NCBI GenBank assembly: GCA_963795645.1
Contig: CAWCIK010000006.1
Span: 1,298,259-1,362,258 of the forward strand
DNA from: an uncultured Chloroflexia bacterium
GTDB lineage: Bacteria; Chloroflexota; Limnocylindria; Limnocylindrales; CSP1-4
DNA length: 64,000 bases
Reading direction: 5' to 3'
A model generated the notes under the pieces. That model was not told the origin of the DNA. It saw only the letters and a program-made list of their open reading frames with translations, and did not search any database. Below, piece by piece: positions 46,416 through 64,000 of this stretch. Each line of letters begins with the position of its first letter. The stretch's first letter is position 1. The position numbers and the translations under genes are program-made.

Positions 46416-47216
46416 GTGGAGCAGACCACGCCGGAGCCTACCGGCACTCCCCCTGTGTCGCCGCCGCCGCTGCTCGCCGCGCGCGGTATCTACAAGGCGT
46501 ACGGCGGCGTGCACGCCGTCGAGAATGTCACCATCGATTTCCCCGCCGGCACGGTCACCGCGCTCGTCGGCGACAACGGAGCCGGCAAGACCTCGCTGAT
46601 CAAGATGCTGGCCGGCGCCATGGCCCCCGATGCCGGCCACCTGGAGGTCGACGGCAAGCCGGTGCGCTTCACCAGTCCGGCTTCGGCGCGCGCGGCGGGG
46701 GTCGAGACCGTCTACCAGGACCTCGCGTTGGCCGATCACCGCGACGTCGTCGAAAACCTGTTCATGGGCCGCGAGGCGACACGCGGCTGGGGGCCGTTCC
46801 GCTACCTGGACAAGGGCCGCATGCGGCGCGATACGAGTGCCGCGCTCGAGAGCCTGAACGTCAAGATACCGTCCATCAAGCAGCAGGTCCGGCGTCTGTC
46901 AGGCGGCCAGCGCCAGGGCATCGCCATCGGCCGCGCCGTCCACTGGGGCTCGCGCATCCTGATCATGGACGAGCCGATGGCCGCGCTCGGCCTCCAGGAG
47001 GCGGGCCGCGTCCAGGGGTTGATCAACACGCTCGCCGAGCGCGGCCTGACCCAGATCGTCGTGAGCCACAACCTGGAGCATGTCTTCACCCTCTCCACGC
47101 GGATCGCGGTCATGCGTCTCGGCCGCCTCGTCGGCGTACGCGAGACCGCCAAGACCGATCACGAGGAGATCGTCCGACTGATCGCCGGGCTGGGCCCGTC
47201 ACCCTCGAGCACCTGA
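46416..47216 (+). CDS. Sugar-type ABC transporter ATP-binding protein (single NBD, RbsA/FrcA-like)
   Basis: Walker A GDNGAGKTS, LSGGQRQ signature, Walker B ILIMDEPMAAL; GTG start. Confidence 0.85.
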   Translation: MEQTTPEPTGTPPVSPPPLLAARGIYKAYGGVHAVENVTIDFPAGTVTALVGDNGAGKTSLIKMLAGAMAPDAGHLEVDGKPVRFTSPASARAAGVETVYQDLALADHRDVVENLFMGREATRGWGPFRYLDKGRMRRDTSAALESLNVKIPSIKQQVRRLSGGQRQGIAIGRAVHWGSRILIMDEPMAALGLQEAGRVQGLINTLAERGLTQIVVSHNLEHVFTLSTRIAVMRLGRLVGVRETAKTDHEEIVRLIAGLGPSPSST

Positions 47217-48051: not shown

Positions 48052-48996
48052 TCACCTGGTTGCACTGCTCACCTCCCGCACGACGACCCTGCCCCGGAGC
48101 GCCTCGATCCGCGACGGATCGACCTGGCCCGCGCCGAGCTCGAGCACGCTGGCGCTCGCCGCCGCGCCGGCGGCGGCGAGCGCCTCCACGACTGAGCGAC
48201 CCGCCTCGAGCGCCACGACGAGGCCGGCGTTGAAGACATCGCCCGCGCCGACGGCGTTGACCGCCTTGAGACGCGGCACGCGCACCGTCCAGGCCTGCGT
48301 GCCGTCCGACGCGGCCGCACCGTTGGCGCCGTCGGTCACCACGGCCAGCTGCGCGCCGCGCGCCGCGAGGCGCGCGGCCATCGCACCAGCACCGGCAAAG
48401 GACGAACCTTCCGCGGCACCGGCCTCGCGCGCCTCGGCGAGAGTGACCTTGACCACGTCAGGCGCCGCGTCGAGCGCCAGCCCCAGCGCTTCGCCACCGG
48501 CGTCGACGAGGCACCTGGCCCCGGCCTCGTGAGCGGCGTGCACGAGCTGCGCGTACGAGTCGATCGGCAGGCCTGCGGGCAGCGAGCCCGAGCAGACGAG
48601 CCACGCCGTTCGGGGCAGCAGCTCGGCGCGCAGCTGGGCGATCAACCGCTCGAGGTCGCTCTCGGCCAGCACCGGGCCGGGCTCGTATATGAGCATGGAG
48701 CGGCCTGCCGCATCGGTCGCCACGTAGGTCGAGCGCGTCTCCGGTCCGGCGGTCAGGAAATGGGGTTCGAGGCCCTCCGCCGCCAGCGCCTCGACGAGCC
48801 AGGCGCCGGCATGACCGCCGCAGATACCGGTCGTGGCTACCTGCGCTCCGAGCAGCCGCGCCGCGCGGCAGGCGTTGACGCCCTTGCCGCCGGGCAGGAC
48901 GCGGACGTCGCTGGGGCGCAGGATCGTGTCGAACGCGAGCCGATCGACCAGCGCGGTGCGATCGACGGCCGGCGCGAGGGTGACTCCGACGATCAT
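48052..48996 (-). CDS. PfkB family kinase, 1-phosphofructokinase / tagatose-6-phosphate kinase (FruK/LacC)-like
   Basis: MIVGVTLAPAVDRT N-terminus typical of FruK/LacC; GG lid motif; C-terminal anion hole NAVGAGDVFNAGL; ATGA overlap with the upstream kinase. Confidence 0.8.
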   Translation of the reverse strand: MIVGVTLAPAVDRTALVDRLAFDTILRPSDVRVLPGGKGVNACRAARLLGAQVATTGICGGHAGAWLVEALAAEGLEPHFLTAGPETRSTYVATDAAGRSMLIYEPGPVLAESDLERLIAQLRAELLPRTAWLVCSGSLPAGLPIDSYAQLVHAAHEAGARCLVDAGGEALGLALDAAPDVVKVTLAEAREAGAAEGSSFAGAGAMAARLAARGAQLAVVTDGANGAAASDGTQAWTVRVPRLKAVNAVGAGDVFNAGLVVALEAGRSVVEALAAAGAAASASVLELGAGQVDPSRIEALRGRVVVREVSSATR

Positions 48997-50012
48997 CAGC
49001 CGGCTGCGACCGGGCCGTCGAGCAGCTCTGCCTGCGGCACGCGCTCGAGTGCCTGGTCTATCTGGCCGCGGCCGGCAATCGACTCGGCCCCGCCGCGGCC
49101 GCTGAGGCTGGCCGCGGCGGACGCGGTCGCGAAGCGGGCCGCGGTCGCGATATCGTCGCCGCGCGAGAGCGCATCGAGAAAGCCGGCGTCGAACGCGTCA
49201 CCGGCGCCGACTGCCTCGCGGACCAGTGCCTCGTCGATGCGCACCGCGGGCTGGCGATAGAGCCGTGTCCCGTCGCTGACGACGGCGCCGGCGCCGCCGA
49301 GCTTGATCGCCACCAGACGCGGCCCTGCCGCGTGGGCGGCCGCGACGAGGGCGGGCAGCGTGTCGGCCTCGAAGAGCATTCTTGCCTCGTGCTCGTCGCA
49401 CAGCAGGACGTCCGACTCGCGGACTACATCGGCGACATGCGGCAGCCATGGCGCGGGCGTATCGATCAGTGGAAACTGCGGATCGATCGAGGTCAGCACA
49501 CCCTTCGCGCGGGCCTGCCGGAAGAGCGCCGCCTGGCCGCGATGCCACATCTCCGGGAAGTGCAGCAAGCCGCCCGAGTGGAGCAGCCCGAGCGGGCGCG
49601 CGCCGGGCTCGTCAGCCCACAGGCCGGGCGGGGGATCCGGCCACGGCTCGAAGCTGGGCATGCGGTAGGTCATCGGGCGCTTTATGCCGCCGAAGAGCAT
49701 CACGTAGATCGCGATCGCGGTCACGCCGTCAGCGTCGGCCAGGTGCCGACAGTCCAGGCCGCGCTGCTCGAGCTCCTGCCGTATGGCGGCACCGAAGGCG
49801 TCCGAGCCGACCGTCGAGCAGACGTCGACGTGCCAGCCAAGCCGGGCGAAGACCTGCACGGTGTAGCCGATCGACCCGGCAACGAGCAGGTCGACATCGG
49901 ACGGGCCGACCCACGCGTTAAGCGGCTCCCGCTCAAGGGGTGCCGTGCCGCGCATGAAGAGGTCCATGTTCAGCGGCCCGATGACGGCCACACGCGGCCG
50001 TGCGTCGCTCAT
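48996..50012 (-). CDS. PfkB family carbohydrate kinase (ribokinase-like)
   Basis: 338 aa from MSDARPRVAVIGP; GAGDAFDAGFL motif. The ORF's N-terminal 263 codons are spurious. Confidence 0.8.
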   Translation of the reverse strand: MSDARPRVAVIGPLNMDLFMRGTAPLEREPLNAWVGPSDVDLLVAGSIGYTVQVFARLGWHVDVCSTVGSDAFGAAIRQELEQRGLDCRHLADADGVTAIAIYVMLFGGIKRPMTYRMPSFEPWPDPPPGLWADEPGARPLGLLHSGGLLHFPEMWHRGQAALFRQARAKGVLTSIDPQFPLIDTPAPWLPHVADVVRESDVLLCDEHEARMLFEADTLPALVAAAHAAGPRLVAIKLGGAGAVVSDGTRLYRQPAVRIDEALVREAVGAGDAFDAGFLDALSRGDDIATAARFATASAAASLSGRGGAESIAGRGQIDQALERVPQAELLDGPVAAG

Positions 50013-50026
50013 AGGTTCGTGATTGC

Positions 50027-51325
50027 TCAGTGCGTCCCGGGCGGGAAGAGCATGTTCCAGACGCGGGCGTGCTTGGGCACGTTCGAGCGCTGCGTATCGG
50101 GGTTGAGACCCAGGCCGACGCCGCAGTAGTAGGGGATGAGCTGGCCGGGCAGGACGGCCAGGACGGTGAACAGCACCTCGTCCTCGATCGGCAGGCGGAC
50201 GACGTAGTCGACGATGTCGGCGATCTTGTCGTCGTTCTGGCTGACGATCGCCACGGCCGGGCTCTTGAGCTGCTCGGTCACGCGGGCGATGTCGTGCAGG
50301 TCGCCATACGAGTCGCCCGGTGGCGCGACGAGCACGGTCAGGATCGATTCCTCGGTCAGGCCCAGCGCGCCGTGGATGTGGCGCCCGGGGTTCATCGACT
50401 TGGCCGGGATATGGCTCATCTCGTCGAACTTGAGCGCGATCTCCTCGGCCGTGCCGAAGTTCGCGCCGGCACCCACGACGAGCACGCTGCGCACGCCGAG
50501 GAACATGTCGGCGATCGTCCGGCAGCGCTTGTCGACAGCATCGAACATCTCGCCCATCAGGCGCGGCGTGTCGAGCAGCTGCGCCTGGAGCTTGTCGAAG
50601 TCGAACTTGCCCGGGTTGCGCAGCTTGCCCAGCTCGAGGGCCAGGTAGATCGCCGCGGCGATTCGAGTGGTGTAGTGGAAGGTGTCCGAGCCGCCGGTGT
50701 CGAAGCCGCCGGCGGTCAGGATGCGCGCGTCGCTGGCCTGCACTACCGGGCTGCCCTCGACGCTGGTGAGCGAGAGGGTGTACGCGCCGCGCTCGCGGCA
50801 CTCGCGCGCCGCGGCGACGGTGTCGACGGTGCTGCCGCTGCCCGAGTAGGCGACGGCGAGCAGCTTGCTGTAGTCGTACGGCGGCGGATAGCGCAGGAAC
50901 GCCTGCGAGTCGTAGTCCCAGCCGGGCACGCCCGCGAAGCGGGCAAAGGCCGCGTTGGCGACCTGGGCCACGAACTGCGAGGTGCCCGAGCCGAGACCCA
51001 CGATGCCCATGAAGTCGCGCTCGGCCAGCGTGCGCGCGACCTGCGCGATCTCGTCGGCGTGCTCGAAGGTCCCGCGCAGCGCCGAGGGCTGGCTCTTGAT
51101 ATCGCCGTACAGGTTGAACGGGTGATGGGTCTGGGCCGGAGTGCCGAGCGCCTTGTACATGATCGGCTCTTCGCCGGTCGCTTCGATCTGCTCGCGGATG
51201 TCGCCGACGATGCCCCAGGTCTTGATGCGCTGGCCGCGTTGCCGGACCTCGTCAAGGTCGACGGGTGCGCCGTCGGCCGATCCAGCGGCGCTCGGGGCCG
51301 TGCCTCGGTCGTGATCCTGTGGCAT
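50027..51325 (-). CDS. Double-SIS-domain sugar-phosphate isomerase/deaminase (AgaS/GlmS-C/FrlB-like)
   Basis: C-terminal 432 codons of the 1245-codon ORF. Own start ATG preceded by AAGGAG with an 8-nt spacer. Two SIS domains (GLGSGTSQFVA... and VVGAGANFGTAEEIALK...). Confidence 0.75.
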   Translation of the reverse strand: MPQDHDRGTAPSAAGSADGAPVDLDEVRQRGQRIKTWGIVGDIREQIEATGEEPIMYKALGTPAQTHHPFNLYGDIKSQPSALRGTFEHADEIAQVARTLAERDFMGIVGLGSGTSQFVAQVANAAFARFAGVPGWDYDSQAFLRYPPPYDYSKLLAVAYSGSGSTVDTVAAARECRERGAYTLSLTSVEGSPVVQASDARILTAGGFDTGGSDTFHYTTRIAAAIYLALELGKLRNPGKFDFDKLQAQLLDTPRLMGEMFDAVDKRCRTIADMFLGVRSVLVVGAGANFGTAEEIALKFDEMSHIPAKSMNPGRHIHGALGLTEESILTVLVAPPGDSYGDLHDIARVTEQLKSPAVAIVSQNDDKIADIVDYVVRLPIEDEVLFTVLAVLPGQLIPYYCGVGLGLNPDTQRSNVPKHARVWNMLFPPGTH

Positions 51326-53248
51326 GTCGTTCAACTCCTTGCGTGGATGCCAGCGCCAACCCGGGTGGTCCGGCCGGCTCCAGCCGCCGCGGGGCGGCTG
51401 GGAGGCCGACCGCGGACCAGGCACAGGTCCGCTGTCTGATGTGCTCGATCGGGATCCGGAAGCCGCGGCGGAGCCCGCGCTGCGCTCGTTCCTTGGCGGC
51501 ATGAGCGGCAGTGCCGGACGTCCGCCCGGTGCGGCGTGCGTCGCGCCATCCGTCGTGGCGGAGGGCACTGCCGGCCGGCCGTTCATGCCGGCGACCGCGC
51601 GGACGGCCTCATCGCGCAACCGGTTGCGCTGGACCTTGCCCGATTCGGTCATCGGGAAGGACTCGACGAAACGCACGTAGCGCGGCACCTCGAACCGGCC
51701 GAGGTGCTCGGCCAGGTGGCGCAGCAGCTCGTCCTCTGTCAGCTGCGCGCCTGCCGCCGGCCGCACGAAGGCGAAGATCTCCTCGCCGTAGTACTCAGAG
51801 GGCACGCCCACGACGTGCATCTCGGCGACCTTGGGGTGGCGCCGGCCGGCCGACTCGACCGCAGCCGGGTCGATGTTCTCGCCGCCGCGGATGATCATGT
51901 CCTTGATCCGTCCGACGATGCGCCAGACGCCGCTCGCGTCGACCGTGGCCAGGTCGCCGGTGTGCAGCCAGCCCTGGCGGTCGATAGCCTGGGCCGTTTC
52001 AGCGGGCATGTCGAAGTAGCCGCGCATGACCATCGAGCCGCGCGTGACCAGCTCGCCGGGCGTGCCGGCTGCGACCGGCTTGCCGGTGGCCGGGTCGATC
52101 GCGCGCACCTCTGCCCCCAGGATCGGCCGCCCGACACTGCCCAGGCGCACGTCCTCGGGATCGTCGATCGAGGTCTGGGTCACGACCGGCGCCGCCTCGG
52201 TCAGGCCGTAGGCAACGACCAGCTGCGGGATGTGCAGCTCGTGCGCCACGCGCCGACCCAGGTCGACCGGCACCGGGGCGCCGGCGATGATGCCCGTGCG
52301 CAGCGAGGACAGGTCCGTTCGCGTCCGCTCGGGGCTCTCGAGCAGGGCGACGAACATCGTCGGCACGCCATAGAGCACCGTGCAGTGCTCGGCGGCGACC
52401 GAGCGCAGCACAGCGTCCGCGTCGAAGACCTCGGACGGCAGCACGATGGCCGCCCCGTAGGTAACCGCCGCGAGCGTGCCCATGACCGCCCCGAAGCAGT
52501 GGTGGAAGGGGACCGGCAGACATACTCTGTCGCCGTTCGAGAGGCGGATGTTGGCGCCGACGGCAGCCGCGTTCTGGAGCATCGCCCGGTGCGTCAACTG
52601 GACGCCCTTGGGGAAACCGGTCGTGCCCGACGTGTACAGGATCATGCTCACATCGTCGGGCTGAGTCCGGCTCGCGGCGCGCGCCAGCTCGGCTTCGCTC
52701 GTGCCTTCGGCCGCGGCCGTGAAATCGGCCCAGCGCATGGCCGCGCCGGGAACGTCGGCGACCTCGGGCAGGGCAACGACGCGGCGCAGCGAGCGCGGCC
52801 CCTCGCCGCGAGCCAGGCGATCGAGGAGCGCGGTGCGCGGCTTGCGGTGAGTGCCGGCGATGAGCATGGCGGCCCCGGAGTTGGCCAGGATCTGCTCGAT
52901 CTCCTCGTCGCCCAGGCCGGCGTTGGCCGTGGCCACGATCACGCCCGCGTACGCCGCGCCGAGCTGCACGAGTGGCCACTCGGGCGCGTTGCGTGCCCAC
53001 ATGACGACCCGCTCACCCGGCGTGACGCCGAGCGCGAGCAGGGCGCGGCCCACCTGCTTGGCCTCGGCGTGGAGCTCGGCATAGTCGAGGCGCCTGCCGC
53101 TCGAGGCATGGACGAGAGCCTGACGCTGGCCGTTGCTGCGTGCTGCCCGATCGAGCAGCGCTCCGATGGTCGCGCTGCGCAGCTGGGGTTGGTGGCCGTT
53201 GCTGCCGGTCGCGGCCCTGCGCGCGAAGCCCGCCGGCGGCGCTGCGAC
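51326..53248 (-). CDS. AMP-forming acyl-CoA synthetase/ligase (FadD-like), reading through without a stop into the SIS gene frame
   Basis: Motifs ILYTSGTTGFPKGV, YGLTE, TGDL, IKDMIIRGGENI, ESGKVQR. Then an 85-aa low-complexity Pro/Ser/Arg tail with no stop codon before the SIS ATG. In another frame a TGA sits inside the SIS SD (AAGGAGTTGAACGACATG), as expected for a natural gene end. Boundaries approximate. Confidence 0.6.
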
Positions 53249-53764
53249 GGCGGCAAAGGCGGGCGTGGCCAGCAATGCGCCGAGCTCGGTCGCCCTGACC
53301 AGCAGGCCGGCCGCACCGCTGCGCAGCATCTGGTCGACCTCAGCGACGCCGGAGGCGGTGCCGATGACCGTCACACCCGGCGTGTCGCGCAGAGCGTCGA
53401 CCAGTGCGGGATCGCGCACGACGAGGGCGGTCGCGCCGCTCTCCACCGCGCGCCGCGCCTCGGCCGCGTTGGCGACCTGGGCCGCGATCGGCGCGCGACC
53501 GCGGCGGACGAGCTCGGTCACGAGCTGGTCTGTTGTCTCTGCCGGGCGATACAGGATGCCGGCACGGACCGGCAGCCGGGCCGCGAGCTGGGCGGGCGCG
53601 ATCTTGCCGTCGCGCTCGTCGATGCGCATGCACAACGTGTCGCCGGGCCGGCCGTAGAGCGGGCTGCTCCCGTTGACGACGATGATCGCGGCGATGCCCG
53701 ACGCGCGCGCGGCATCGAGCCCGGCGCGATCCTCGACCTCGACCCACAGGGCGGGCGTGCTCAT
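53249..53764 (-). CDS. Unknown about 170-aa alpha/beta domain (no confident family), first reading frame after the BMC shell genes; in frame with the ligase with no intervening stop
   Basis: ATG at 53764 overlaps the BMC-T stop (ATGA). Alternating hydrophobic beta-strand and Ala-rich helix pattern (GIAAIIVVNGSSPLYG ... ALVVRDPALVDALRDTPGVTVIGTASGVAEVDQML). Weak resemblance to KDPG-aldolase/OMPDC-like TIM folds, but catalytic Lys not found. Confidence 0.45.
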
Positions 53765-54411
53765 GCCGCGCTCCTGCGCGCGCCGCCGTCACGGCCGCTG
53801 AGCGATGCGAGCGCATCGAGTGCGCGCTCCTGGGCGATGCGCACGCTCGACTCCTCGCCGCTCACGTACAGCCGCCCGAATCGCCCGATGGGCCTGACAT
53901 CGATGATGTCGATATCTGCCGCGCGCTCGGCCTCGTTGGCGGCGAGCAGGATGTACGCCGCCGGCGTGACCTCGAGCACGAGCAGCGTCTCCTGGGGCAC
54001 CAGCAGCGAGCCCTTGCGGAAACGGTTCACCAGCTGGGCCTGGAAGGGCGTCACGTTGGTGATCAGGTTCTGCGACACGACCTGCGGTCGAAGGCGGTCG
54101 CCCTCGCTCAGGCCGATCCGCTCGAGAATGACGCGGCCCGCCTCGGCGACTTCCTGCGGGTCGGTCGCGTGGAGTGAGAGCATGCCGAACTCGCGCTCGA
54201 CGACCTGCGAGCTCGGACGCACGTTGGTCGCCTTGAGCGCCGCGTCGGCGAGCAGGTATATCTCGTTGCCCGGGGCGACCTCGATGAACAGCTGGGCCAT
54301 GCCGACGAGCGGGATGTCGCCATCTGCAACGGTCGCCTCGTAAGCCGCATAGCGCGGCTGCATGCGCGAGACGATGCCGTAGGCACGCAGCTCTCGACCG
54401 GCTCCGGGCAT
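53761..54411 (-). CDS. BMC-T shell protein (tandem/permuted BMC domains, EutL/PduB-like)
   Basis: Two BMC-like repeats (LFIEVAPGNEIYLLADAALKATNV and LLVLEVTPAAYILLAANEAERAADIDIIDV). Paralog of the BMC-T gene at 54707-55333. Start 3 nt after the EutN-like stop. Confidence 0.75.
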   Translation of the reverse strand: MPGAGRELRAYGIVSRMQPRYAAYEATVADGDIPLVGMAQLFIEVAPGNEIYLLADAALKATNVRPSSQVVEREFGMLSLHATDPQEVAEAGRVILERIGLSEGDRLRPQVVSQNLITNVTPFQAQLVNRFRKGSLLVPQETLLVLEVTPAAYILLAANEAERAADIDIIDVRPIGRFGRLYVSGEESSVRIAQERALDALASLSGRDGGARRSAA

Positions 54412-54414
54412 CAC

Positions 54415-54705
54415 TCAGACCTTGGTGTACTTGATCTTGCCGCCCTGGCGGACGGATTCGACGATGGCCACGATCGCGGCGTCGACGGGCACGCCATCGA
54501 TGCCGAGGGAACGTGCGGCCGGCGTGCCGCGCACGACGATGACCAGCTCCCCTTCGCCGGCGCCGACCGAGTCAGCCGCCACGTAGGCCTGGCCGGTGCC
54601 GGAACCATCGGCCGCTGCCTCCTCAACGAGGAGCAGCTTCATTCCTGTCAGCCGCGGCTCCTTGACCGAGGCTACGGCGCTGCCGACAACTCGTGCGAGC
54701 TGCAT
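54415..54705 (-). CDS. BMC vertex protein (BMC-P; EutN/PduN/CcmL family)
   Basis: 96 aa: MQLARVVGSAVASVKEPRLTGMKLLLVEE...GELVIVVRGTPAARSL...AAIVAIVESV is the EutN_CcmL fold signature. Strong SD GGAGGAGG. The ORF's upstream part is spurious. Confidence 0.85.
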   Translation of the reverse strand: MQLARVVGSAVASVKEPRLTGMKLLLVEEAAADGSGTGQAYVAADSVGAGEGELVIVVRGTPAARSLGIDGVPVDAAIVAIVESVRQGGKIKYTKV

Positions 54706-54706
54706 C

Positions 54707-55333
54707 TCAACCTCCTCCCGCGCCAACCGGCGCGACGCTCGATTCGCTGCGCAACGCGTCCACGACGGCGAGTGCCGTCTGCTCCGCAGCTGCGGCGTCC
54801 GCTTCGGTCCCGGCGACGAGCAAGCGTCCGAACAGACCCGTGCCGGCGACGCGCACCAGCTTGATGTCGACCGCCTTCTCGAGCTCGTTGGCCAGCACAT
54901 AGACGTACGCGGCGGGCGTGACCTCCATCACGAAGAGCGCGTCGCCGGGCAGCGTCCAAGCGCCGCGCCGCACCTTGTTGAACAGCTGGCTGTGGTCCGG
55001 AGCGATGTTCGGCAGCAGCTGGGTCGAGACCACTCTCGGCTCCAGCCGGTCGGACATGCGCATGCCGAGCTCGTCGAGGATCGCCTCGGATGCCTCGAGC
55101 ACCACGTCCGGCGCAGGCGCGTGGAGCTCGAGCAATCCGAAGTCACGCTCGATCAGCGTTCCCGCCGACCGAACGTCGCTGGCCTTCATGGCCCGATCCG
55201 TCAACGGGAAAACGGCATTGCTCGGCGAGACCTCGACCAGCAGCTGCGAGTACCCGGCACGGGGCATCGAGCCCTGTGCCATCAGCCCCCAATAGGCCGC
55301 GTACTGCGGACCCATGCGGTCGACATGGGCCAT
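54707..55333 (-). CDS. BMC-T shell protein (tandem/permuted BMC domains, EutL/PduB-like)
   Basis: 208 aa from MAHVDRMGPQYAAYW. Repeats LLVEVSPSNAVFPLTDRAMKASDV and LFVMEVTPAAYVYVLANELEKAVDIKLV. The ORF's long N-terminus is spurious. Confidence 0.78.
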   Translation of the reverse strand: MAHVDRMGPQYAAYWGLMAQGSMPRAGYSQLLVEVSPSNAVFPLTDRAMKASDVRSAGTLIERDFGLLELHAPAPDVVLEASEAILDELGMRMSDRLEPRVVSTQLLPNIAPDHSQLFNKVRRGAWTLPGDALFVMEVTPAAYVYVLANELEKAVDIKLVRVAGTGLFGRLLVAGTEADAAAAEQTALAVVDALRSESSVAPVGAGGG

Positions 55334-55368
55334 CACCCGCAGGCTGGTGCCGCTCGAGGCGGCGATCG

Positions 55369-55665
55369 TCACCCTTCGGCGACCATGATCGACTCGACCG
55401 CGTCGTCGGGCCGGGCGATGACGTGCTGGCTGACGAGCTCGCCGACCTTCTGGGCAGCCATGCCGCCGGCCTCGACCGCGGTCTTCACCGCGCCGACCTC
55501 GCCCTTGACGATGACCGTGACCAGGCCGTCGCCGACGAGCTGGCGCGACATGAGCGTGACCTGGGCCGCCTTGACCATTGCGTCGGCGGCCTCGACCGCG
55601 GCCACCAGGCCACGTGTCTCGATCATGCCGATTGCCGTTCCCGCTCCGCGGGCTGACTCTGCCAT
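55369..55665 (-). CDS. BMC-H shell protein (PduA/EutM/CcmK-like hexamer)
   Basis: IGMIETRGLVAAVEAADAMVKAAQVTLMSRQLVGDGLVTVIVKGEVGAVKTAVEAG is the canonical Pfam BMC (PF00936) sequence; SD AAGGAGG. Confidence 0.9.
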   Translation of the reverse strand: MAESARGAGTAIGMIETRGLVAAVEAADAMVKAAQVTLMSRQLVGDGLVTVIVKGEVGAVKTAVEAGGMAAQKVGELVSQHVIARPDDAVESIMVAEG

Positions 55666-55725
55666 TTCGGTTTCCTCCTTGTCCTTGCCTGAGATTGCCT
55701 TTGATTGACGGGGTGGCTGCTGGGC

Positions 55726-56019
55726 CTAGGGCTCCCTCCCTTCGAAGCGGAAGGCTCGATCGACCTCTTCGAACAGGCGCCCGAAAGTGCGCCCGCCGAT
55801 GAGCGTTCCCAGCCGGGAGGCCACCGCGCTTCCCGCGGCGACGGCCTCGTTGACCGCGGCGATGTCGCCGCGACATACGATCGTCACCAGCCCGTCGCCG
55901 ATAAGCACGGGGCCGGCGAGCCTGACCGGGGCGGACTTGGCCATCACGTCGGCAGCTCCGATCGCCCCGGTCAATCCACGCACCTCGACAAGTCCCACAG
56001 CACTGCCTCCGCCGCTCAC
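55726..56019 (-). CDS. Divergent BMC-H shell protein
   Basis: VGLVEVRGLTGAIGAADVMAKSAPVRLAG...GLVTIVCRGDIAAVNEAV matches the BMC domain core, but the C-terminus diverges. GTG at 56019 overlaps the Fe-ADH stop (GTGA); an internal GTG at 55998 with a GGAGG SD is an alternative start. Confidence 0.8.
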   Translation of the reverse strand: MSGGGSAVGLVEVRGLTGAIGAADVMAKSAPVRLAGPVLIGDGLVTIVCRGDIAAVNEAVAAGSAVASRLGTLIGGRTFGRLFEEVDRAFRFEGREP

Positions 56020-57158
56020 AGGGCGCGCTCGAACAGGCGCACCACGTCCTGCTCGCTCATGGGCCGCGGGTTGGTGGTCATGGTCAGATCAGCCATCGCG
56101 CGCGCGGCCAGATCCGGGATGCGCTCGCGCTCCACCCCAAGTGTGCCCAGGCCCTTGGGCAGCCCGATGCGGTCTCCGAGCCGGCGCAGCAGCGCAGGCA
56201 GGCGACGCGCGGACGCGCCCGGGGCGAGGATGCGCGCGACGCGCGCGTAGCGCTCACGAGCCGCCGGCTCGTTGTACTCGACGACATGGGGCAGCACGAT
56301 CGCGTTGCAGATGCCGTGGGGCAGGTCGTAGACGCCGCCCAGCGCGTGGGCCATGGCGTGCACCGCGCCGACGAGGGCCGAGTTGATCGCCAGCCCGGCG
56401 AGCAGCGCGCCGAGCATCATCGAATCGCGCGCCTCCAGGTCGTCGCCGTCCTCGACGGCCCGCTCCAGTGAGCCCGCGATCAGCTCGACCGCGCGCAGGG
56501 CATAGAGGTCGGTCATGTCCGACGCGAGCGTCGACACGTATGCCTCGATGGCGTGCGTCAGCGCGTCGAGGCCGGAGGCAACGGTCACGTTGCGCGGCAG
56601 TCCGACCGTCAGCAGCGGATCGTTGATCGCCAGGCGGGGCATCAGGTGCCGGTCGGCGATGATCATCTTCAGCTCGCGCGCAGGATCGGTGATGACCGCG
56701 TAGCGGCTCACGTCCGCGCCGCTGCCGGAGGTCGTGTTGACGCAGATCAGGGGCACCGAGCGATGCGCCGAGCGATCGACGCCCTCCAGGTCGCGTATTT
56801 CGCCGCCGTTGGCCGCGACGAGGGCGACGGTCTTGGCGCAGTCGTGCGCGCTGCCGCCGCCGACAGAGACGACGACCGCGACGTCGCGCCCGGCGCCGGC
56901 GTCGAGCGCCTCCTCGACCTGGCCGACGGTCGGATTTGGTTCGACTCGATCGAACACGATCACCTCCACGCCGGCGTCGCCCAGAGTGCGGTCGACGGAG
57001 CGCAGGATGGAGCTCGCGGCCAAACCGCGATCGGTGATGACCAGAGCTGTGCGCCCATAGCCTCGTGCGGCGGGGCCGAGCGTCGACAGCGCGCCGCGGC
57101 CGAAATTGATGCGCGGCGGAAGGTGGATCTCGGCGACGGACGGCATGCTCGCGGTCAT
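56016..57158 (-). CDS. Iron-containing alcohol dehydrogenase (FucO/PduQ/EutG-like)
   Basis: 380 aa; GGGSAHDCAK NAD-binding motif; Fe-ligand histidines (HAMAHALGG...LPHGICNA). Start ATG overlaps the ALDH stop (ATGA). Confidence 0.88.
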   Translation of the reverse strand: MTASMPSVAEIHLPPRINFGRGALSTLGPAARGYGRTALVITDRGLAASSILRSVDRTLGDAGVEVIVFDRVEPNPTVGQVEEALDAGAGRDVAVVVSVGGGSAHDCAKTVALVAANGGEIRDLEGVDRSAHRSVPLICVNTTSGSGADVSRYAVITDPARELKMIIADRHLMPRLAINDPLLTVGLPRNVTVASGLDALTHAIEAYVSTLASDMTDLYALRAVELIAGSLERAVEDGDDLEARDSMMLGALLAGLAINSALVGAVHAMAHALGGVYDLPHGICNAIVLPHVVEYNEPAARERYARVARILAPGASARRLPALLRRLGDRIGLPKGLGTLGVERERIPDLAARAMADLTMTTNPRPMSEQDVVRLFERAL

Positions 57159-58651
57159 CGGTCGCTCTCGGCGAACCAGTCGGTCGAGTGCTCGGCGAGG
57201 TTGACGTAGACGTTCTTGACCTCGGTGAACGACTCGATCGCGTGCGGCCCGTTCTCGCGTCCCCAACCGCTCTGACGGAAGCCGCCGAATGGTGCCTCGC
57301 TGGTGACGACGTTGTACATGTTGACCCAGATCGTGCCCGCCCTGATCGCGCGCGCCACGCGGTGCGCGAGCTTCACGTCGCGCGTCCAGACGCCCGCGGT
57401 CAGGCCGAAGATCGTGTCGTTGGCGATCCGGATCGCGTCCTCGGGCGTGTCGAAGGGCATGATCGCCACGACCGGGCCGAAGATCTCCTCGCGCGCAATG
57501 CGCATCTCGGGATGAATGTCGACAAAGACTGTCGGCGCTATGTAGTTGCCCCGCGCGAGCTCCGGCGCGGACGGCTTGACGCCTCCGATCAGCAGTCGCG
57601 CACCTTCCTCCCGACCTGAGCGGATGTGGTCCATGACGCGCGAGCAGTGGGTCGGCGAGATCAGTGGCCCGACGTCCGTCCGTGGATCAAGCGGATCGCC
57701 CATGCGCAATGCACCGGCGCGCTCGGTGAAGCGGGCGACAAAGGCGTCGAAGATGGGCCGCTGGACGAGCAGCCGCGAGCCGGCCGTGCAGATCTGACCC
57801 TGCGTCCAGAAGACGCCGAAGAGCGCGCCTGCGACGGCATCCTCGAGGGGCGCGTCCGCGAAGACGATGTTGGGCGCCTTTCCGCCCAGCTCGAGCGACA
57901 CACGCTTGAGGTTGCCTGCCGCCCCGGCGGCGATCTGCTTGCCAACGTCGGTCGAGCCGGTGAACGTGATCTTGTCGACGTCGGGGTGCTCGACCAGCGC
58001 CTGGCCGACCTTCGAATCTCCGATGACGACGTTGATCACGCCGGGCGGCAGGCCCGCTTCCTGGCAGATCTCGCCCAGGCGCAGTGTCGTCAGCGGCGTG
58101 TCGGACGCCGGCTTGATGACGACCGTGTTGCCCGCTGCCAGCGCTGGTCCGAGCTTCCAGGAAGCAAGCAGGAGCGGGAAATTGAAGGGCGTGATCGCGC
58201 CGACCACGCCGAGCGGCTCGCGCAGCGTGTAGCTCAGCACGTCGCCCGGAACCGGCAGCGTCTCGCCGGTGATCTTGGTCGCGAATCCGGCCCAGTACTC
58301 GAAGCAGTCGGCCGAGAGCGGCACGTCGATCTGGCTGCTCTCACGGATCGGTTTGCCGTTGTTGCGCGTCTCGAGCTCGGCGATGGCCTGGTTGTCACGC
58401 TCCATCAGAGCGGCGACGCGGAGCAGGTAGCGTCCGCGCTCGCTGGCCGACATGCGCGGCCACGGCCCCTCGTCGAACGCGCGCCGCGCCGCGGCAACGG
58501 CGGCATTGAGGTCGCGCAGGTCACCGGCCGGGACCTCGGCCAGCGGCTCGCCCGTGGCCGGGTTGTGGACGGTGGTCAGCCGGCCGCTGGCAGGCGCGAC
58601 CCAGCGGCCGTCGATGAGCTGGTTGGGGAAGGTCAACAGCGGGCTCGTCAC
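57155..58651 (-). CDS. NAD(P)-dependent aldehyde dehydrogenase, classical non-acylating type (AldA / betaine-aldehyde-DH-like)
   Basis: ITPFNFPLLL, VIKPASDTPLTT, ELGGKAPNIVFADA, GQICTAGSRL (catalytic Cys), EEIFGPVVAI, PFGGFRQSGWGRENG. Not the PduP/EutE acylating type. GTG start placed at MTSPLLTFPNQLIDGRW; a CTG overlapping the permease stop is an alternative. Confidence 0.85.
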   Translation of the reverse strand: MTSPLLTFPNQLIDGRWVAPASGRLTTVHNPATGEPLAEVPAGDLRDLNAAVAAARRAFDEGPWPRMSASERGRYLLRVAALMERDNQAIAELETRNNGKPIRESSQIDVPLSADCFEYWAGFATKITGETLPVPGDVLSYTLREPLGVVGAITPFNFPLLLASWKLGPALAAGNTVVIKPASDTPLTTLRLGEICQEAGLPPGVINVVIGDSKVGQALVEHPDVDKITFTGSTDVGKQIAAGAAGNLKRVSLELGGKAPNIVFADAPLEDAVAGALFGVFWTQGQICTAGSRLLVQRPIFDAFVARFTERAGALRMGDPLDPRTDVGPLISPTHCSRVMDHIRSGREEGARLLIGGVKPSAPELARGNYIAPTVFVDIHPEMRIAREEIFGPVVAIMPFDTPEDAIRIANDTIFGLTAGVWTRDVKLAHRVARAIRAGTIWVNMYNVVTSEAPFGGFRQSGWGRENGPHAIESFTEVKNVYVNLAEHSTDWFAESDR

Positions 58652-58659
58652 GGCCGCGG

Positions 58660-59610
58660 TCAGTCCCTGAACCGGTCGAGCGAGATGGCCACGATCAGGA
58701 TCGCGCCGAGCAGGACACGCTGGTACTCGGAATCGACGTGGAGCAGGATCAGGCCGTTGAGCAGGCTGGCCAGGAAGATCGACGCTATAAGCGTGTTCTC
58801 GATCCGGCCTCGACCGCCCTGCAGTCCGGCACCGCCGAGGATGACCGCGGTCAGGACCGGAAACAGCGCCGCATCGCCGAGCGACGCCGTCGCCTGCGAT
58901 ACGCGCGATACCCAGACCACTCCACCCAGGCCGGCCAACGCCCCAGCTGCGATGAAGACGGCCATCCGAATCCGATTGACGCGGATGCCCGCACGGAACG
59001 CCGCCTCGCGGTTGTCGCCGACGAGGTAGACATGGGCGCCGAACGGAGTCCGGTTGAGGATGAACCAGGCGATCGTGTAGCCGATGAACATGAGCAGGAC
59101 CGGGATGGGCACGATGCCGATGTAGCCGCCCGCCAGCCAGTCGATCGGATCGAGCGCGGGACCGGTGATCGCGTGGCCCTGCGTATAGACCAGGCCAATG
59201 CCGAGCACGACGCTGAGCATGCCCAGAGTGGCTACGACCGACGGGATGCGGAAGAAGGTCACGAGTGTGCCGTTCACCACGCCGACAAGCGTGCCGATGA
59301 GAACCGCGGCGCCGATCGCGATGATCGGGTCGTAGCCCGAGACGAGCAGCTCCGCGGCGGTCACGCCGGCGACGCCGATGACGCTGCCGAACGAGAGGTC
59401 GAGCTCGCCGACCAGGATGACGAACGTCGCGCCGATGGCCGGGATGGCATAGATCGAGGCCTGGCGCAGGAGGAGCGGGATATTCCGCTCGGTCAGGAAC
59501 GTGTCCGTGGTGAACGACAGGAAGATGATCCAGCCGATGAAGAAGACGATGAAGCCGTAGTCGGCCAGGAAGTCGATGACGCGGACCCGGATGGGCGTGC
59601 GGTGCAGCAT
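58660..59610 (-). CDS. Sugar ABC transporter permease (RbsC/BPD_transp_2 family)
   Basis: 8-10 TM segments and the conserved GG.G...N.L...D.G motifs of monosaccharide ABC permeases. ATG at 59610 chosen (a TTG at 59664 is the alternative). Confidence 0.8.
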   Translation of the reverse strand: MLHRTPIRVRVIDFLADYGFIVFFIGWIIFLSFTTDTFLTERNIPLLLRQASIYAIPAIGATFVILVGELDLSFGSVIGVAGVTAAELLVSGYDPIIAIGAAVLIGTLVGVVNGTLVTFFRIPSVVATLGMLSVVLGIGLVYTQGHAITGPALDPIDWLAGGYIGIVPIPVLLMFIGYTIAWFILNRTPFGAHVYLVGDNREAAFRAGIRVNRIRMAVFIAAGALAGLGGVVWVSRVSQATASLGDAALFPVLTAVILGGAGLQGGRGRIENTLIASIFLASLLNGLILLHVDSEYQRVLLGAILIVAISLDRFRD

Positions 59611-59630
59611 GGGGACGTCGGCCGCGACGC

Positions 59631-61793
59631 TCACGAGGCCGGCTCCAGGCGCAGCACGGCACAACCCTGCGGCGGCACCTCGAACGTGAACGACACGACA
59701 TCTTCGTCGCCGGTCGCGTTGTTCGCCGCGATCGGCGGAGCCGACGCGTTGACGCTGACCGCGTTGTAGGCGACGCCGGCCTCAAGGCCGACTCTCGTGC
59801 GCGGCAGGTTGACCGTGACCTGGCGCGCAAAGCGCGAGTCGCCCATCCAGCCCGACTCGAGGTTGCCCAGCAGCAGGTGGATGCGCCCATTGCTACGCCA
59901 GCAGCTGACCGTGACCGGCTCGTGGGCGGCCACCTGGTCGACGCTCAACCCACCGCTTTGGGCGGCGCGATCGTTGAGCAGACGGGCGACCTCCACGTAC
60001 GGGTTGACGCTGCCGATCTGCGAATGAGGGACGAGCGGGTTACCCGGGTCGGCCAGGTCGGGCGGTTGCCAGTGGTAGACGCCGTCGCGACCGGCGAGAA
60101 GAGGCAGACCATCGGACGCGTAGCCGATCCAGGTGCCTTCGTCGGCGCTCAGCGCGCTGCGCTCGGGCAGGTGAACACGTTCCTCGGGCGCCAGGTCGTG
60201 GCTCGACGGCGCTCCGAGACGGTAGCCATCGGGCTGGCGTTCGCCGGTCAGGGCGACGCCCGCCGCGGTCAGGAGCGCCGGCTCGACCAGGTCCGCCCGG
60301 CCGCTGCCGACGAGTGCACCCCAGCGGCCATCGAGCTTTCCCGCTGCCGCTGCCGACGGCATCTGCCAGAGCAGGCCGTCGGGCCACTGCCCGGGCAGCC
60401 ACTCTGGGCGGCTGGCGGCCAGGAAGGCCGCCCCCCATTTGAGCGCCATTCCGGCATAGTCCTCGGCCCACTCGCTGCCGTTGCTGGCCGGGTCGTGCTC
60501 GTACTTGGCCTCGAGGCCGGCCCGGTCATGGACGAGCAGCGGCCCGAAGACGGCCTCGATGCCAGCGGCGCTCGACTCTGCCGCGGCCAGCCGCGTGGCA
60601 AGGAAGTCGACGTCCTGCGTGCTGATCAGGCGCTTGTTCCAGTCGTTCATCCAGCTGATGTAGGTCCCCTCGGGAACCACCGGCCGGCCGTCGCGATCGA
60701 GCACAGCGGCGTGGCCGAAGGCCCACATCGCCCATTCGAGCTTTCCCGGCGTGTCGTGCAGCGTGTCCCACGGCTCCCAGCCGTCCCAGGTCTCGATCAA
60801 GTTGTATTGGCGGCACGGGCTTGCCCCTGTCGCGGCGCGCGTCTCGTTGCCGCCGCGGATCTGGGCGCCGTGGCCGAGCAGGTAGGCGAGCTGGAAGGTC
60901 CAGCCCTTCCAAGTGTCATCCCACCAGTCTTGCCAGGCACCGCCCCAGGTCTGGTCGATGAAGATGTCGAGTGCGCCGTCGGCGACTATCGCCTCCAGGT
61001 CGACGCAGCCGGCGAGCCACTCCGACGTGCCGCTGATGCCGCTCGAATAGGTCATCACCAGGCCTTCGGGATGGGCTTCCTTGCACGCCCGGAAGAGGCG
61101 CCGGACAGCGTCGGTCCACGAGCGGTTCTCGTCCGGGTCGCTCGAGGCGACGCTGCCATACGGGCCTACGCGGGTGTAGAGCAGCGGGCCGAACATGCCG
61201 TCGCGCAGGTGGATCAGGTCGAGCCCGAGATAACGGGCGACCGAGCCCCACTGGGCGCCGAAGAACTCTGGAAAGGGCTCGCCCTCGGCGATGCCGTCGG
61301 GCCGAGTCGCGTAGCGGTACGAGTCGGCATGAAGCCGCACTCGAGGATCGAGGTCGGGTCCGGGCAGGGGCGAGATGTCGAGCGGATAGAGCTCGGGATG
61401 GCGGTCGTACCAGAACGAATAGAGGTCGTACATGCTGCCCGTATCAGGCGGGGCCACGACCTGGCCGAGACCGGCGATGAGCACGCCCATCTTGATGTCG
61501 GTCAGGCCGTGCGCGGCATACGCCGCACGGAGCGAGGAGATGAACTCGCGCAGGTCGGCATAGCTGAGGCCGGCCCAGCGCGCGTAGCGGCGGGAGCGGA
61601 GCGGCAGCGGCTGGTCGCCGCTGCCGCTCCATTCGGTTACGAGATCGGCCAGCCAGCCGATGTTGAAGCAGACGCCGCGCAGATCACGCTCACCCGCCAA
61701 CAGGGGCAGGGTGCGCTCGGCAAACTCGACCTGGCGGTCGGCCCAGGGCCGTTCGCCAAACCAGTCGATGTCCACCTCGATCCAGCGGTCCAC
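59631..61793 (-). CDS. Hypothetical 720-aa cytoplasmic protein (Trp-rich; possibly glycoside-hydrolase-like TIM barrel) embedded in the sugar ABC transporter gene set
   Basis: GTG start with GAGGGAGA SD 25 nt after the SBP stop; no signal peptide; many W/Y/D residues (QTWGGAWQDWWDDTWKGW); no family recognised. Confidence 0.55.
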   Translation of the reverse strand: MDRWIEVDIDWFGERPWADRQVEFAERTLPLLAGERDLRGVCFNIGWLADLVTEWSGSGDQPLPLRSRRYARWAGLSYADLREFISSLRAAYAAHGLTDIKMGVLIAGLGQVVAPPDTGSMYDLYSFWYDRHPELYPLDISPLPGPDLDPRVRLHADSYRYATRPDGIAEGEPFPEFFGAQWGSVARYLGLDLIHLRDGMFGPLLYTRVGPYGSVASSDPDENRSWTDAVRRLFRACKEAHPEGLVMTYSSGISGTSEWLAGCVDLEAIVADGALDIFIDQTWGGAWQDWWDDTWKGWTFQLAYLLGHGAQIRGGNETRAATGASPCRQYNLIETWDGWEPWDTLHDTPGKLEWAMWAFGHAAVLDRDGRPVVPEGTYISWMNDWNKRLISTQDVDFLATRLAAAESSAAGIEAVFGPLLVHDRAGLEAKYEHDPASNGSEWAEDYAGMALKWGAAFLAASRPEWLPGQWPDGLLWQMPSAAAAGKLDGRWGALVGSGRADLVEPALLTAAGVALTGERQPDGYRLGAPSSHDLAPEERVHLPERSALSADEGTWIGYASDGLPLLAGRDGVYHWQPPDLADPGNPLVPHSQIGSVNPYVEVARLLNDRAAQSGGLSVDQVAAHEPVTVSCWRSNGRIHLLLGNLESGWMGDSRFARQVTVNLPRTRVGLEAGVAYNAVSVNASAPPIAANNATGDEDVVSFTFEVPPQGCAVLRLEPAS

Positions 61794-61817
61794 TCGGCGT
61801 CTCCCTCGCTATCGGGC

Positions 61818-63908
61818 CTACTGACCCTGACCCATGTACGTGGAGACCGGCACTTCGAGCGAGTTCGGCACCAGCGCTCCGGCCATCAGCTTGGCGATGG
61901 CGTTGGCCGCCAGCGTGCCTGTGCCGGCGGGGTTGGTGTCGACGCAGCCGCGGTACATCGTGCCCTGGTCGATCAGGGTGACCGCCGCGGGATCACAGTC
62001 GATGCCGAAGATGGCTACGTCATCGGCCGTCTTGCCGGCCTGGTCGAGGTACTGGTAGGCGCCCAGGTCGCCGCCGTCGTTGATGCCGGTGACGAGCCTG
62101 ATGGCGGGGAACGCGGTGAAGGCCGTCTCGGTCGAGGCGACCGCGTTTTCGGCCAGACCGCCGAGGTAGCGGCCGACGACGTTGACGTTCGGGTTGGTTT
62201 CGGTGAGGCCCTGCTGGATCGCGTCGGCGCGAGCGACCAGGTCGGGGATGTCGGGGTAGTCGAGGATCATCGTCTGGACTTCCTCGCCGGGCCACGTCTG
62301 GGCCGCGAAGGTGCCCGCCGAGCGGCCTTCCTGGAGGCCGATAGTCAGGTTGTCGACGCTGATGCCGACGGCGCCCGTGTCACCCAGATCGAGTCCGGTG
62401 ACCTGGACCACGATGATGCCATCGTTGATCGCGGTCGTGGCCGCATCGCCTACGGTCGCCGACGAGCTGGTCGTGATGATCGCCGCGACGCCGTCCTGGA
62501 CGAAGCCCTCGAAGCACTGCAGCGCCTTGTCGGCGTCAGTCTGCGAATTGCAGATGTTGACCGTGGCGCCCATGGCTTCGAGTGCGTTCTTGGCCGTGTT
62601 GTTGAGCAGCGTGTGGTACTCGGTCTCCATCGTCGTGGCGACGATGCCGACCGTCTTGCCGGCCAGCGCGGCCGATGCTGCGGTCTGCTCCTCGGGGGTG
62701 AGCTCGAAGTCCGAGCCCTGGCCCTTCTGGCCGAGTGCCACGGCGCCGTTGCCAACCGAGACCTTGCCCTGGTAGGTCGAGACCGGAACCTCGACACTGC
62801 CCGGAACGTCCGCTCCGGCCATCAGCTTGGCGATGGCGTTGGCCGCCAGCGTGCCTGTGCCGGCGGGGTTGGTGTCGACGCAGCCGCGGTACATCGTGCC
62901 CTGGTCGATCAGGGTGACCGCCGCGGGATCACAGTCGATGCCGAAGATGGCTACGTCATCGGCCGTCTTGCCGGCCTGGTCGAGGTACTGGTAGGCGCCC
63001 AGGTCGCCGCCGTCGTTGATGCCGGTGACGAGCCTGATGGCGGGGAACGCGGTGAAGGCCGTCTCGGTCGAGGCGACCGCGTTTTCGGCCAGACCGCCGA
63101 GGTAGCGGCCGACGACGTTGACGTTCGGGTTGGTTTCGGTGAGGCCCTGCTGGATCGCGTCGGCGCGAGCGACCAGGTCGGGGATGTCGGGGTAGTCGAG
63201 GATCATCGTCTGGACTTCCTCGCCGGGCCACGTCTGGGCCGCGAAGGTGCCCGCCGAGCGGCCTTCCTGGAGGCCGATAGTCAGGTTGTCGACGCTGATG
63301 CCGACGGCGCCCGTGTCACCCAGATCGAGTCCGGTGACCTGGACCACGATGATGCCATCGTTGATCGCGGTCGTGGCCGCATCGCCTACGGTCGCCGACG
63401 AGCTGGTCGTGATGATCGCCGCGACGCCGTCCTGGACGAAGCCCTCGAAGCACTGCAGCGCCTTGTCGGCGTCAGTCTGCGAATTGCAGATGTTGACCGT
63501 GGCGCCCATGGCTTCGAGTGCGTTCTTGGCCGTGTTGTTGAGCAGCGTGTGGTACTCGGTCTCCATCGTCGTGGCGACGATGCCGACCGTCTTGCCGGCC
63601 AGCGCGGCCGATGCTGCGGTCTGCTCCTCGGGGGTGAGTGTCAGATCGTCGGCCGTCCCCTTCTGACCGACGAGGACGCTGCCGTTACCCGAAGCGGGTG
63701 TGCTCGGCGCCGCTGTCTCGGGCGCCGCTGTCACGGGCGCCGCTGTCTCAGGCGCCGCTGTCACGGGCGCCGCTGTCACAGGTGCCGCCGTTGCCGTTGG
63801 CTCCGGCGCAGCGCTCGCAGGCGCCGCTGTGGGCGACGCCGTCGGCGTGCCCGAGCACGCCGCGACCATCAGTACGGCCGCCGCGGCCGTCAACCAGGTT
63901 CGCTTCAT
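61818..63908 (-). CDS. Lipoprotein sugar-binding protein (periplasmic-binding-protein type I, RbsB-like) with two tandem binding modules
   Basis: ATG with AGAGGAGG SD; lipobox LMVAAC-S; Ala/Pro/Thr linker encoded by tandem 18-bp repeats (63700-63800); then two about 312-aa PBP modules that are 100% identical at the nucleotide level over about 830 bp. Confidence 0.8.
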   Translation of the reverse strand: MKRTWLTAAAAVLMVAACSGTPTASPTAAPASAAPEPTATAAPVTAAPVTAAPETAAPVTAAPETAAPSTPASGNGSVLVGQKGTADDLTLTPEEQTAASAALAGKTVGIVATTMETEYHTLLNNTAKNALEAMGATVNICNSQTDADKALQCFEGFVQDGVAAIITTSSSATVGDAATTAINDGIIVVQVTGLDLGDTGAVGISVDNLTIGLQEGRSAGTFAAQTWPGEEVQTMILDYPDIPDLVARADAIQQGLTETNPNVNVVGRYLGGLAENAVASTETAFTAFPAIRLVTGINDGGDLGAYQYLDQAGKTADDVAIFGIDCDPAAVTLIDQGTMYRGCVDTNPAGTGTLAANAIAKLMAGADVPGSVEVPVSTYQGKVSVGNGAVALGQKGQGSDFELTPEEQTAASAALAGKTVGIVATTMETEYHTLLNNTAKNALEAMGATVNICNSQTDADKALQCFEGFVQDGVAAIITTSSSATVGDAATTAINDGIIVVQVTGLDLGDTGAVGISVDNLTIGLQEGRSAGTFAAQTWPGEEVQTMILDYPDIPDLVARADAIQQGLTETNPNVNVVGRYLGGLAENAVASTETAFTAFPAIRLVTGINDGGDLGAYQYLDQAGKTADDVAIFGIDCDPAAVTLIDQGTMYRGCVDTNPAGTGTLAANAIAKLMAGALVPNSLEVPVSTYMGQGQ
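61875..63638. repeat. In-frame tandem duplication, period 936 bp; 61875-62702 is identical to 62811-63638
   Basis: Line-by-line comparison at offset 936 shows identity. The ORF track shows identical antisense ORFs 62020..62295 and 62956..63231 and matching + ORFs 62311 and 63247. Flanks diverge (C-terminus ...VPVSTYMGQGQ vs the inter-module ...VPVSTYQGKVSVGNG). Confidence 0.85.
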
Positions 63909-64000
63909 GAGGCCTCCTCTGTCTGTTTGGCCCTGAACCGTGGGCTCCATCCCCCGTTGTGTTGCTGCCGGCCGTCCCGTTCCCTAATGCGGGTATTCAG

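Follow-up and report, generated by a model that had tools for sequence, protein, structure and literature searches.

How can two stretches of 828 nucleotides (nt) within one bacterial gene be identical at every position when the sequence that borders them is not? The question is raised by a gene near the end of a 64-kb window (the whole stretch of 64,000 nt that we analyzed, from contig CAWCIK010000006.1 of an uncultured Chloroflexia bacterium), which lies on the minus strand and encodes a putative substrate-binding lipoprotein with two binding modules in series. The initial annotation of this locus had described a perfect tandem duplication of 936 bp that was either very recent or an assembly artifact. 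We found that neither description fits, because the same two-module gene with the same linker is present in three further lineages (L001, L002/L004 and L011) and the flanks of the modules are old. The pattern across these genomes points to an old intragenic duplication whose cores have very probably been homogenized since by gene conversion or unequal exchange, that is, by concerted evolution.

Layout of the repeat

Base-by-base comparison showed that positions 61875-62702 of the window are identical to positions 62811-63638, with 828/828 nt matching at an offset of 936 and no interruption. The 936-nt spacing was also returned by a repeat search of the window, and this pair is the only long repeat in the 64 kb. 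An exact repeat of 828 nt cannot be chance. Both copies lie in frame within a single minus-strand open reading frame (ORF; 61818..63950), which encodes 710 amino acids (aa) if translation begins at its first ATG, at 63950. This upstream in-frame ATG is an alternative start; the likely start is the MKRTW at nt 63908, which yields a protein of 696 aa (61818..63908), since the database entry and all orthologs begin there (P0002 and P0003 with MKRTW/MKRSW).

The 936-nt unit itself is imperfect. The duplication had been placed correctly, and careful alignment revealed no base differences over the 828-nt core; outside the core the unit has diverged, and the same qualification applies to the modules, which are 100% identical in their cores and 57-65% identical in the strictly homologous parts of their flanks. 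On the minus strand, and thus in the order of translation, a flank specific to module 1 on its N-terminal side (GNGSVLVGQKGTADDLT, 63639..63689; 57% identical to the homologous flank of module 2) precedes core copy 1 (62811..63638, aa 91-366). A homologous yet strongly diverged spacer of 108 nt follows (62703..62810), made up of the C-flank of module 1 (DVPGSVEVPVSTYQGK), a flexible linker (aa 382-397, about nt 62718-62765) and the N-flank of module 2 (GNGAVALGQKGQGSDFE). Core copy 2 (61875..62702, aa 403-678) is then followed by a C-flank specific to module 2 (LVPNSLEVPVSTYMGQGQ) and the stop codon (61818..61874). The linker between the modules does differ from the termini of the protein, as had been noted, and the peptide given for it, GKVSVGNGAVALGQKGQGSDFEL, is correct.

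Comparison of cores and flanks in related genomes

A whole-protein search of 5.8 billion proteins returned four relatives besides the entry itself. P0002 (locus L001; 689 aa, 84% aa identity) and P0003 (locus L002; 635 aa, 75% aa identity, with a frameshifted tail) both have two modules. L002 is the same as L004, a contig of the Chloroflexia metagenome-assembled genome (MAG) MFD09964.bin.2.266. The MFD MAGs are Nanopore R10.4.1 assemblies produced with Flye and one round of Medaka (PMC12313526); reads therefore cover the structure of ~1.9 kb, and each copy was polished from its own read segments. Using a linker-specific alignment, we also scanned metagenomes and found L011 (JGI contig Ga0075304_1006951), which comes from an independent short-read (Illumina) project. 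Of core 1 this contig retains the last 65 nt, after which come the same linker and a complete module 2; it is 89.6% aa identical to the window protein, and its two core ends agree at 64/65 nt. Its breakpoint is the place where a k-mer assembler would be expected to stop at a near-perfect repeat.

Single-module relatives were found at 59-64% aa identity (L003, L005-L010 and L012), and L003 and L005-L010 include the short-read MAGs GWC2_73_18 and H27_376. The expectation that related genomes would carry a single module of about 385 aa is thus borne out for distant relatives, while the closest relatives have two modules.

Within each genome, the two cores are nearly indistinguishable. They differ at 0/828 nt in the window and at 1/837 nt in L001 (a synonymous G/A difference, ACG/ACA; 99.9% identity); in L002 there are no substitutions and two frame-breaking insertions of 1 nt (99.6% identity). 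Between genomes, by contrast, pairs drawn from the window, L001 and L002 differ in the core by 73, 141 and 155 substitutions (91%, 83% and 81% identity), with dS of 0.22-0.44 and dN of 0.06-0.15 between orthologs. The synonymous changes are common to both modules, and protein-level selection therefore cannot account for the identity. The two insertions in L002 (9686-9700, in module 2) lie 7 nt apart (GCAGGTCGAAGTCG to GCAGCGTCGAACGTCG) and shift the frame; they may be Nanopore consensus errors, in line with the many split genes in MFD09964.bin.2.266, or may reflect a real inactivation of module 2.

The flanks behave in the opposite way. The comparison was made on the strictly homologous flanking segments, of which the N-side one is 51 nt long and the C-side one 48 nt. 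Across genomes, module-1 flanks are 76-84% identical to each other and module-2 flanks 62-84% (75-84% on the N side), whereas module-1 and module-2 flanks inside one genome are only 54-71% identical (57-59% for the N-flanks). Position-specific residues are retained in all lineages including L011: GTADDL in one module against GQGSDF in the other on the N side, and VPG against VPN on the C side. In the three genomes, the identical tract stops at nearly the same points, with deviations of at most 1 nt at its N-side end and at most about 12 nt at its C-side end. Paralog identity within a genome thus exceeds ortholog identity between genomes, synonymous sites included, and the flanks keep their orthologous relationship, which is the pattern of concerted evolution. 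Given the shared position-specific linker and the flank divergence within genomes, the duplication is old and the identity of the cores has been maintained secondarily.

Protein architecture and fold

The reading of the gene as a lipoprotein with two complete type I periplasmic binding protein modules in series was supported by two methods. First, the Pfam profile PF13407 (Peripla_BP_4) matches both modules in two stretches (E = 4e-56; 190.9 bits against a cut-off of 35.1); the best stretch spans profile positions 1-256 of 258, and both domains are full-length. At the protein level, the homogenized tract corresponds to this Pfam domain plus an N-terminal helix of 17 residues. Second, we modeled the protein with AlphaFold2 from an alignment of 55 sequences. 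The mean predicted local distance difference test score (pLDDT) was 85, with most of both modules above 90, and fell below 50 in two segments: residues 1-73, which hold the signal peptide and a tether, and residues 382-397, the inter-module linker, which is conserved in L001, L002 and L011. The predicted TM-score (pTM) of 0.58 is the value expected when two domains are placed independently. The model thus predicts two independent ribose-binding-protein folds joined through a flexible linker of ~16 residues.

Foldseek comparison against the PDB returned binding proteins for ribose, allose and galactofuranose at target-normalized TM-scores of 0.8-0.89 (for 2fn9, 2ioy and 1drj, 0.81-0.87 at E values of about 1e-15), and a profile search of PDB sequences likewise gave ribose-binding proteins as the best matches. 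All Foldseek matches were single-module and covered one half of the query, with query-normalized TM-scores of at most 0.37; the Foldseek PDB library holds no solved structure of the tandem form. Among NCBIfam models, the modules are nearest RbsB, XylF and YtfQ. The RbsB equivalog model scored 58.9 bits against a cut-off of 337, and the XylF and YtfQ equivalogs likewise scored far under their cut-offs.

Ahead of module 1, the translation contains, by inspection, a putative signal peptide and lipobox (MKRTWLTAAAAVLMVAA followed by Cys18; 63855..63908) and a disordered tether rich in Pro, Ala and Thr (63690..63854), in which Tandem Repeats Finder detected a 15-nt tandem repeat of 5.5 copies (63706-63788) encoding (AAPVT/AAPET)n. 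The length and sequence of the tether vary among orthologs. As part of the explanation favored here, in which as a whole we have high confidence, the gene would supply a CUT2-type (RbsB/RbsC-like) sugar ABC importer with its substrate-binding protein, a lipoprotein anchored in the membrane.

Origin and maintenance of the identical cores

We propose that the ancestral gene had one module of ~312 codons and that a tandem duplication doubled it before the window lineage split from those of L001, L002 and L011; the two 828-nt cores would since have been homogenized repeatedly through homologous recombination. The route could be intrachromosomal gene conversion, unequal exchange between sister chromosomes via three-copy intermediates, or both. 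An intermediate state with one copy was also considered and excluded, as it would lose the conserved linker. Under repeated homogenization, each substitution fixed in a lineage, synonymous ones too, would end up in both modules. Homogenization would stop at the same two points in every lineage, and the edges would have diverged into position-specific tether-side, linker and C-terminal sequences that are by now too different for recombination. Such a divergence barrier, in which flanks of 54-71% identity block the heteroduplex, would be the simplest account of the sharp and shared boundaries, and purifying selection, specific to each position, probably contributes by keeping the edge segments distinct. 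The initial annotation had pointed out that perfect repeats are hotspots for recA-dependent copy-number variation, and we agree that homologous recombination can act on such a repeat.

The split between the window and L001 gives a scale for the timing: it corresponds to 73 core differences, against 0 or 1 between the copies of either genome. Measured against that divergence time, the last homogenization in each lineage would therefore date back at most a few per cent. Because the difference between copies is near zero in three lineages together, we infer repeated events rather than one lucky event.

Of the alternatives, the one that survives best grants that the duplication is real and old, and holds that the identity was exaggerated by collapse or polishing, so that the true copies would be up to a few per cent apart. 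De Bruijn-graph assemblers walk through a collapsed loop and make the copies identical by construction, which is probably what happened in a SPAdes contig from another family (L013, discussed below), and the window sequence could have been affected in the same manner, its sequencing technology being unspecified. Against this, the one substitution in L001 and the two indels in L002 indicate that the copies were called separately, and the MFD assemblies are long-read assemblies with polishing by spanning reads. Even a hidden divergence of a few per cent would still lie far under the 9-19% between orthologs, and the conclusion of concerted evolution would stand. We regard an exaggerated identity as quite unlikely.

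Zero differences over 828 nt are also what would be expected of a very recent tandem duplication in the window genome, whose copies had lacked the time to diverge. A duplication of this kind would leave the whole 936-nt unit identical and its junction an exact join of C terminus to N terminus. What we found is a 108-nt spacer and outer flanks that are only 57-65% identical to their counterparts, and the same diverged linker in orthologs that differ by 9-19% in the core, which makes a recent origin very improbable. Equally improbable, in our estimate, is that the module was re-duplicated independently in each lineage instead of an old duplication being homogenized. Tandem duplications of substrate-binding proteins (SBPs) did arise several times in RbsB-like families, and the P0017 family mixes one- and two-module proteins at comparable levels of identity. 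However, the linker and the position-specific flank signatures are common to all four lineages of the window clade, and the tract boundaries agree within about 12 nt; separate events would not produce this diverged junction anew each time. The least credible alternative is an assembly artifact that falsely duplicated a single-module gene: perfect repeats are its classic symptom and the window copies were judged from the assembled sequence, but the junction is unique, diverged from both termini and conserved at 75-84% nt identity in two assemblies and in an Illumina contig of another project, the window has no other long repeat, and the reading frame is intact with both modules complete.

Several observations weigh against concerted evolution as proposed here, or limit how far it reaches. 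We looked for GC-biased conversion in the GC content at third codon positions (GC3) and found no signal when the core was compared with neighboring genes and with single-module orthologs; GC3 is uniformly high in all compared genes (0.80-0.94), which leaves little room for a conversion signal. All three full-length two-module sequences probably come from one project and pipeline, with one partial Illumina contig as independent support. The identity of the cores in the window is known from an assembled sequence. Gene conversion and unequal crossing-over are inseparable by the pattern they leave, so that conversion is proposed from the pattern only. As for the transporter, the RbsB and XylF equivalog scores are far under cut-off and point to no particular ligand, and the assignment to a CUT2 importer is incomplete, as no CUT2 two-domain (tandem) ATPase gene adjoins the permease gene or lies in the operon.

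Other tandem RbsB-like binding proteins

With one module as query, we searched 1.84 billion cluster representatives exhaustively by HMMER. About 10 of the best 150 representatives (50% clusters) are tandem two-module proteins, so the view that this architecture is rare needs qualifying. Several of them carry long exact repeats: 818 nt in P0017 (L013), a protein of an Anaerolineae-like family, 744 nt in P0259 (L014) and 620 nt in P0007. Since L013 is a SPAdes contig, its exact identity may be due to graph collapse. In P0156, from the Nanopore locus L015, all 14 differences between the modules are synonymous, which is direct evidence of purifying selection on both. Near-identical modules are also present in P0061, P0068 and P0149.

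In the P0017 family, modules are usually 90-100% identical within a protein and 71-84% identical between proteins. The group of P0257, P0258 and P0260 is an exception with orthologous pairs of first and second modules. When the two modules of L017, L018 or L019 are compared in segments of 30 nt, most segments of the core agree at 23-28/30 positions, and no exact run exceeds 47 nt. Judged from these sequences, the family is heterogeneous at the DNA level and cannot prove conversion on its own. At the far end stands a clade with a similar linker motif and two strongly diverged modules (P0008, P0009, P0013, P0014 and P0023); in P0009 and P0014, the two that align cleanly, the modules are 31-33% identical. 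Tandem RbsB-like SBPs thus arise repeatedly and range from fully homogenized to fully diverged, and it is in the window clade that a duplication can be shown to be old while its copies are identical today. This recurrence in other RbsB-like subfamilies suggests an under-described architecture and not a one-off.

Possible function of the doubled module

Long perfect direct repeats are prone to deletion. Recombination between the two cores would here delete exactly 936 nt (312 codons) in frame, and the product would be a lipoprotein of 384 aa that combines the N-flank of module 1 with the C-flank of module 2, as in the single-module outgroup. The double form has been kept across the clade despite this possible in-frame deletion, which argues for selection for two modules and suggests that doubled binding sites are advantageous. 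Two identical and independently folded domains on one lipid anchor would double the sites for ligand capture near the permease, and by analogy with GlnPQ, the benefit is most likely that of more capture sites per anchored molecule beside it.

A different possibility is that the nucleotide identity is itself useful, with the gene acting as a recombinational contingency locus that switches in frame between one, two and three modules and so tunes its capture capacity; recurrent homogenization would then keep the switch operable. Such a locus would fit both the near-identical tandem modules in several independent RbsB-like subfamilies and the normal single-module form of the deletion product. We consider it unlikely, if somewhat less so than the exaggerated identity discussed above.

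Comparison with known systems

Concerted evolution by gene conversion is known in bacteria from tufA/tufB in Salmonella, from rRNA operons, from the Rib/alpha-C surface proteins, whose repeats are nucleotide-identical, and from mycolactone-type polyketide synthases, whose modules are near-identical. The locus described here resembles known concerted repeats in that copies within a genome are closer than orthologs, also at synonymous sites, while the flanks keep the orthologous signal. Unlike in those cases, what is repeated is an entire ligand-binding domain of 276 aa, present twice within one gene for a transporter component, and the tract ends at the same points, to about 12 nt, in different species.

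The modules share with other RbsB-like type I SBPs (CUT2, cluster B) the full-length Peripla_BP_4 domain, the fold and an RbsC-like permease in the operon. They differ from the solved RbsB-like proteins, which have a single module, in that two are joined in one polypeptide, and from RbsB systems in that a lipid anchor holds the protein via a Pro/Ala/Thr tether of ~55 residues and no gene for an RbsA-type ATPase is adjacent, a gene for a 720-aa protein lying between the SBP and permease genes.

Tandem substrate-binding domains (SBDs) are known from GlnPQ of Lactococcus lactis, in which two SBDs in series are connected by a linker of 14 aa and the domains are largely independent (PMC8025302). 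These SBDs are of class F, with a type II fold; they form one polypeptide with the transmembrane domain, and each has its own specificity and affinity (PMC8025302). The window protein is similar in having two SBDs in series on one polypeptide and a short flexible linker (14 aa in GlnPQ, ~16 disordered residues here). It differs in that its modules are of type I and are encoded by a separate lipoprotein gene, and in that their 276-residue cores are identical. In the literature we searched, the coverage of which was partial, we found no description of concerted evolution of sugar SBPs, only GlnPQ-type work and unrelated cases.

The window protein is a naturally occurring parallel to the much-studied tandem SBDs of GlnPQ, in which the type I sugar-binding domains are identical and lipid-anchored. 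It also offers an unusually clean example of concerted evolution inside a single gene, from an uncultured bacterial lineage, in which a domain of 276 residues would have been kept nucleotide-identical through at least three speciation events, and which could serve as a natural calibration of conversion rate against mutation rate. More generally, it cautions against reading perfect repeats as recent events or artifacts.

Genomic neighborhood

The SBP gene is followed on the minus strand, within the same operon, by a gene for a conserved protein of 720 aa (59631..61793), which starts 24 nt past the SBP stop codon and has the ribosome-binding site GAGGGAG upstream. This protein had no match in Pfam, NCBIfam or PDB sequences (the last searched with phmmer and a five-sequence profile). 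Its orthologs directly follow the SBP gene in every related locus examined and form a family of 710-720 aa encoded between the SBP and permease genes, with 64-91% aa identity (L001 4310-6352, L005, L008, L010 and L012). Members begin with MDRWxEIDIDWFGxPPW and contain Trp-rich motifs. The gene sits where that of an RbsA-type ATPase normally would.

Next in order is the gene for an RbsC-like ABC permease with a BPD_transp_2 domain (58660..59664, minus strand; Pfam E = 1.6e-39), which also matches the NCBIfam ribose ABC permease model (E = 1.7e-59), below the equivalog cut-off. This permease is presumed to be the docking partner of the SBP. A single ABC_tran ATPase ORF of 266 aa (46416-47216, plus strand) lies ~12 kb from the permease gene on the opposite strand; the part of the window that was scanned contains no other ABC ATPase. 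A scan of 58500-64000 found no promoters or terminators; the region upstream of the SBP gene ends at the edge of the window.

Directly downstream of the transporter genes, a Pfam domain scan identified a bacterial microcompartment (BMC) locus on the minus strand (about 48052-58657). It contains genes for an aldehyde dehydrogenase, an Fe-alcohol dehydrogenase, two BMC-H proteins, an EutN protein and a BMC-T-like protein, as well as a PfkB kinase and an ORF of 1245 aa that unites AMP-ligase and SIS domains. In orthologous loci, the SBP gene is preceded by genes for a DeoC aldolase and a SorC-type regulator. On the strength of the microcompartment genes and this DeoC/SorC context, we assign the SBP to a microcompartment locus for sugars or sugar phosphates, as part of its uptake module; this locus presumably resembles the "SPU" (sugar-phosphate-utilization) type.

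Elsewhere in the window, we observed coding repeats of short period in three minus-strand regions (41020-41694, 43477-44103 and 44369-45127). A repeat with a 9-nt period at 41027-41359 encodes (PEAPAM)n. Two neighboring paralogous genes among these ORFs start with MICPNCG, which is zinc-ribbon-like, and carry Pro/Thr-rich repeats with a period of 12 nt.

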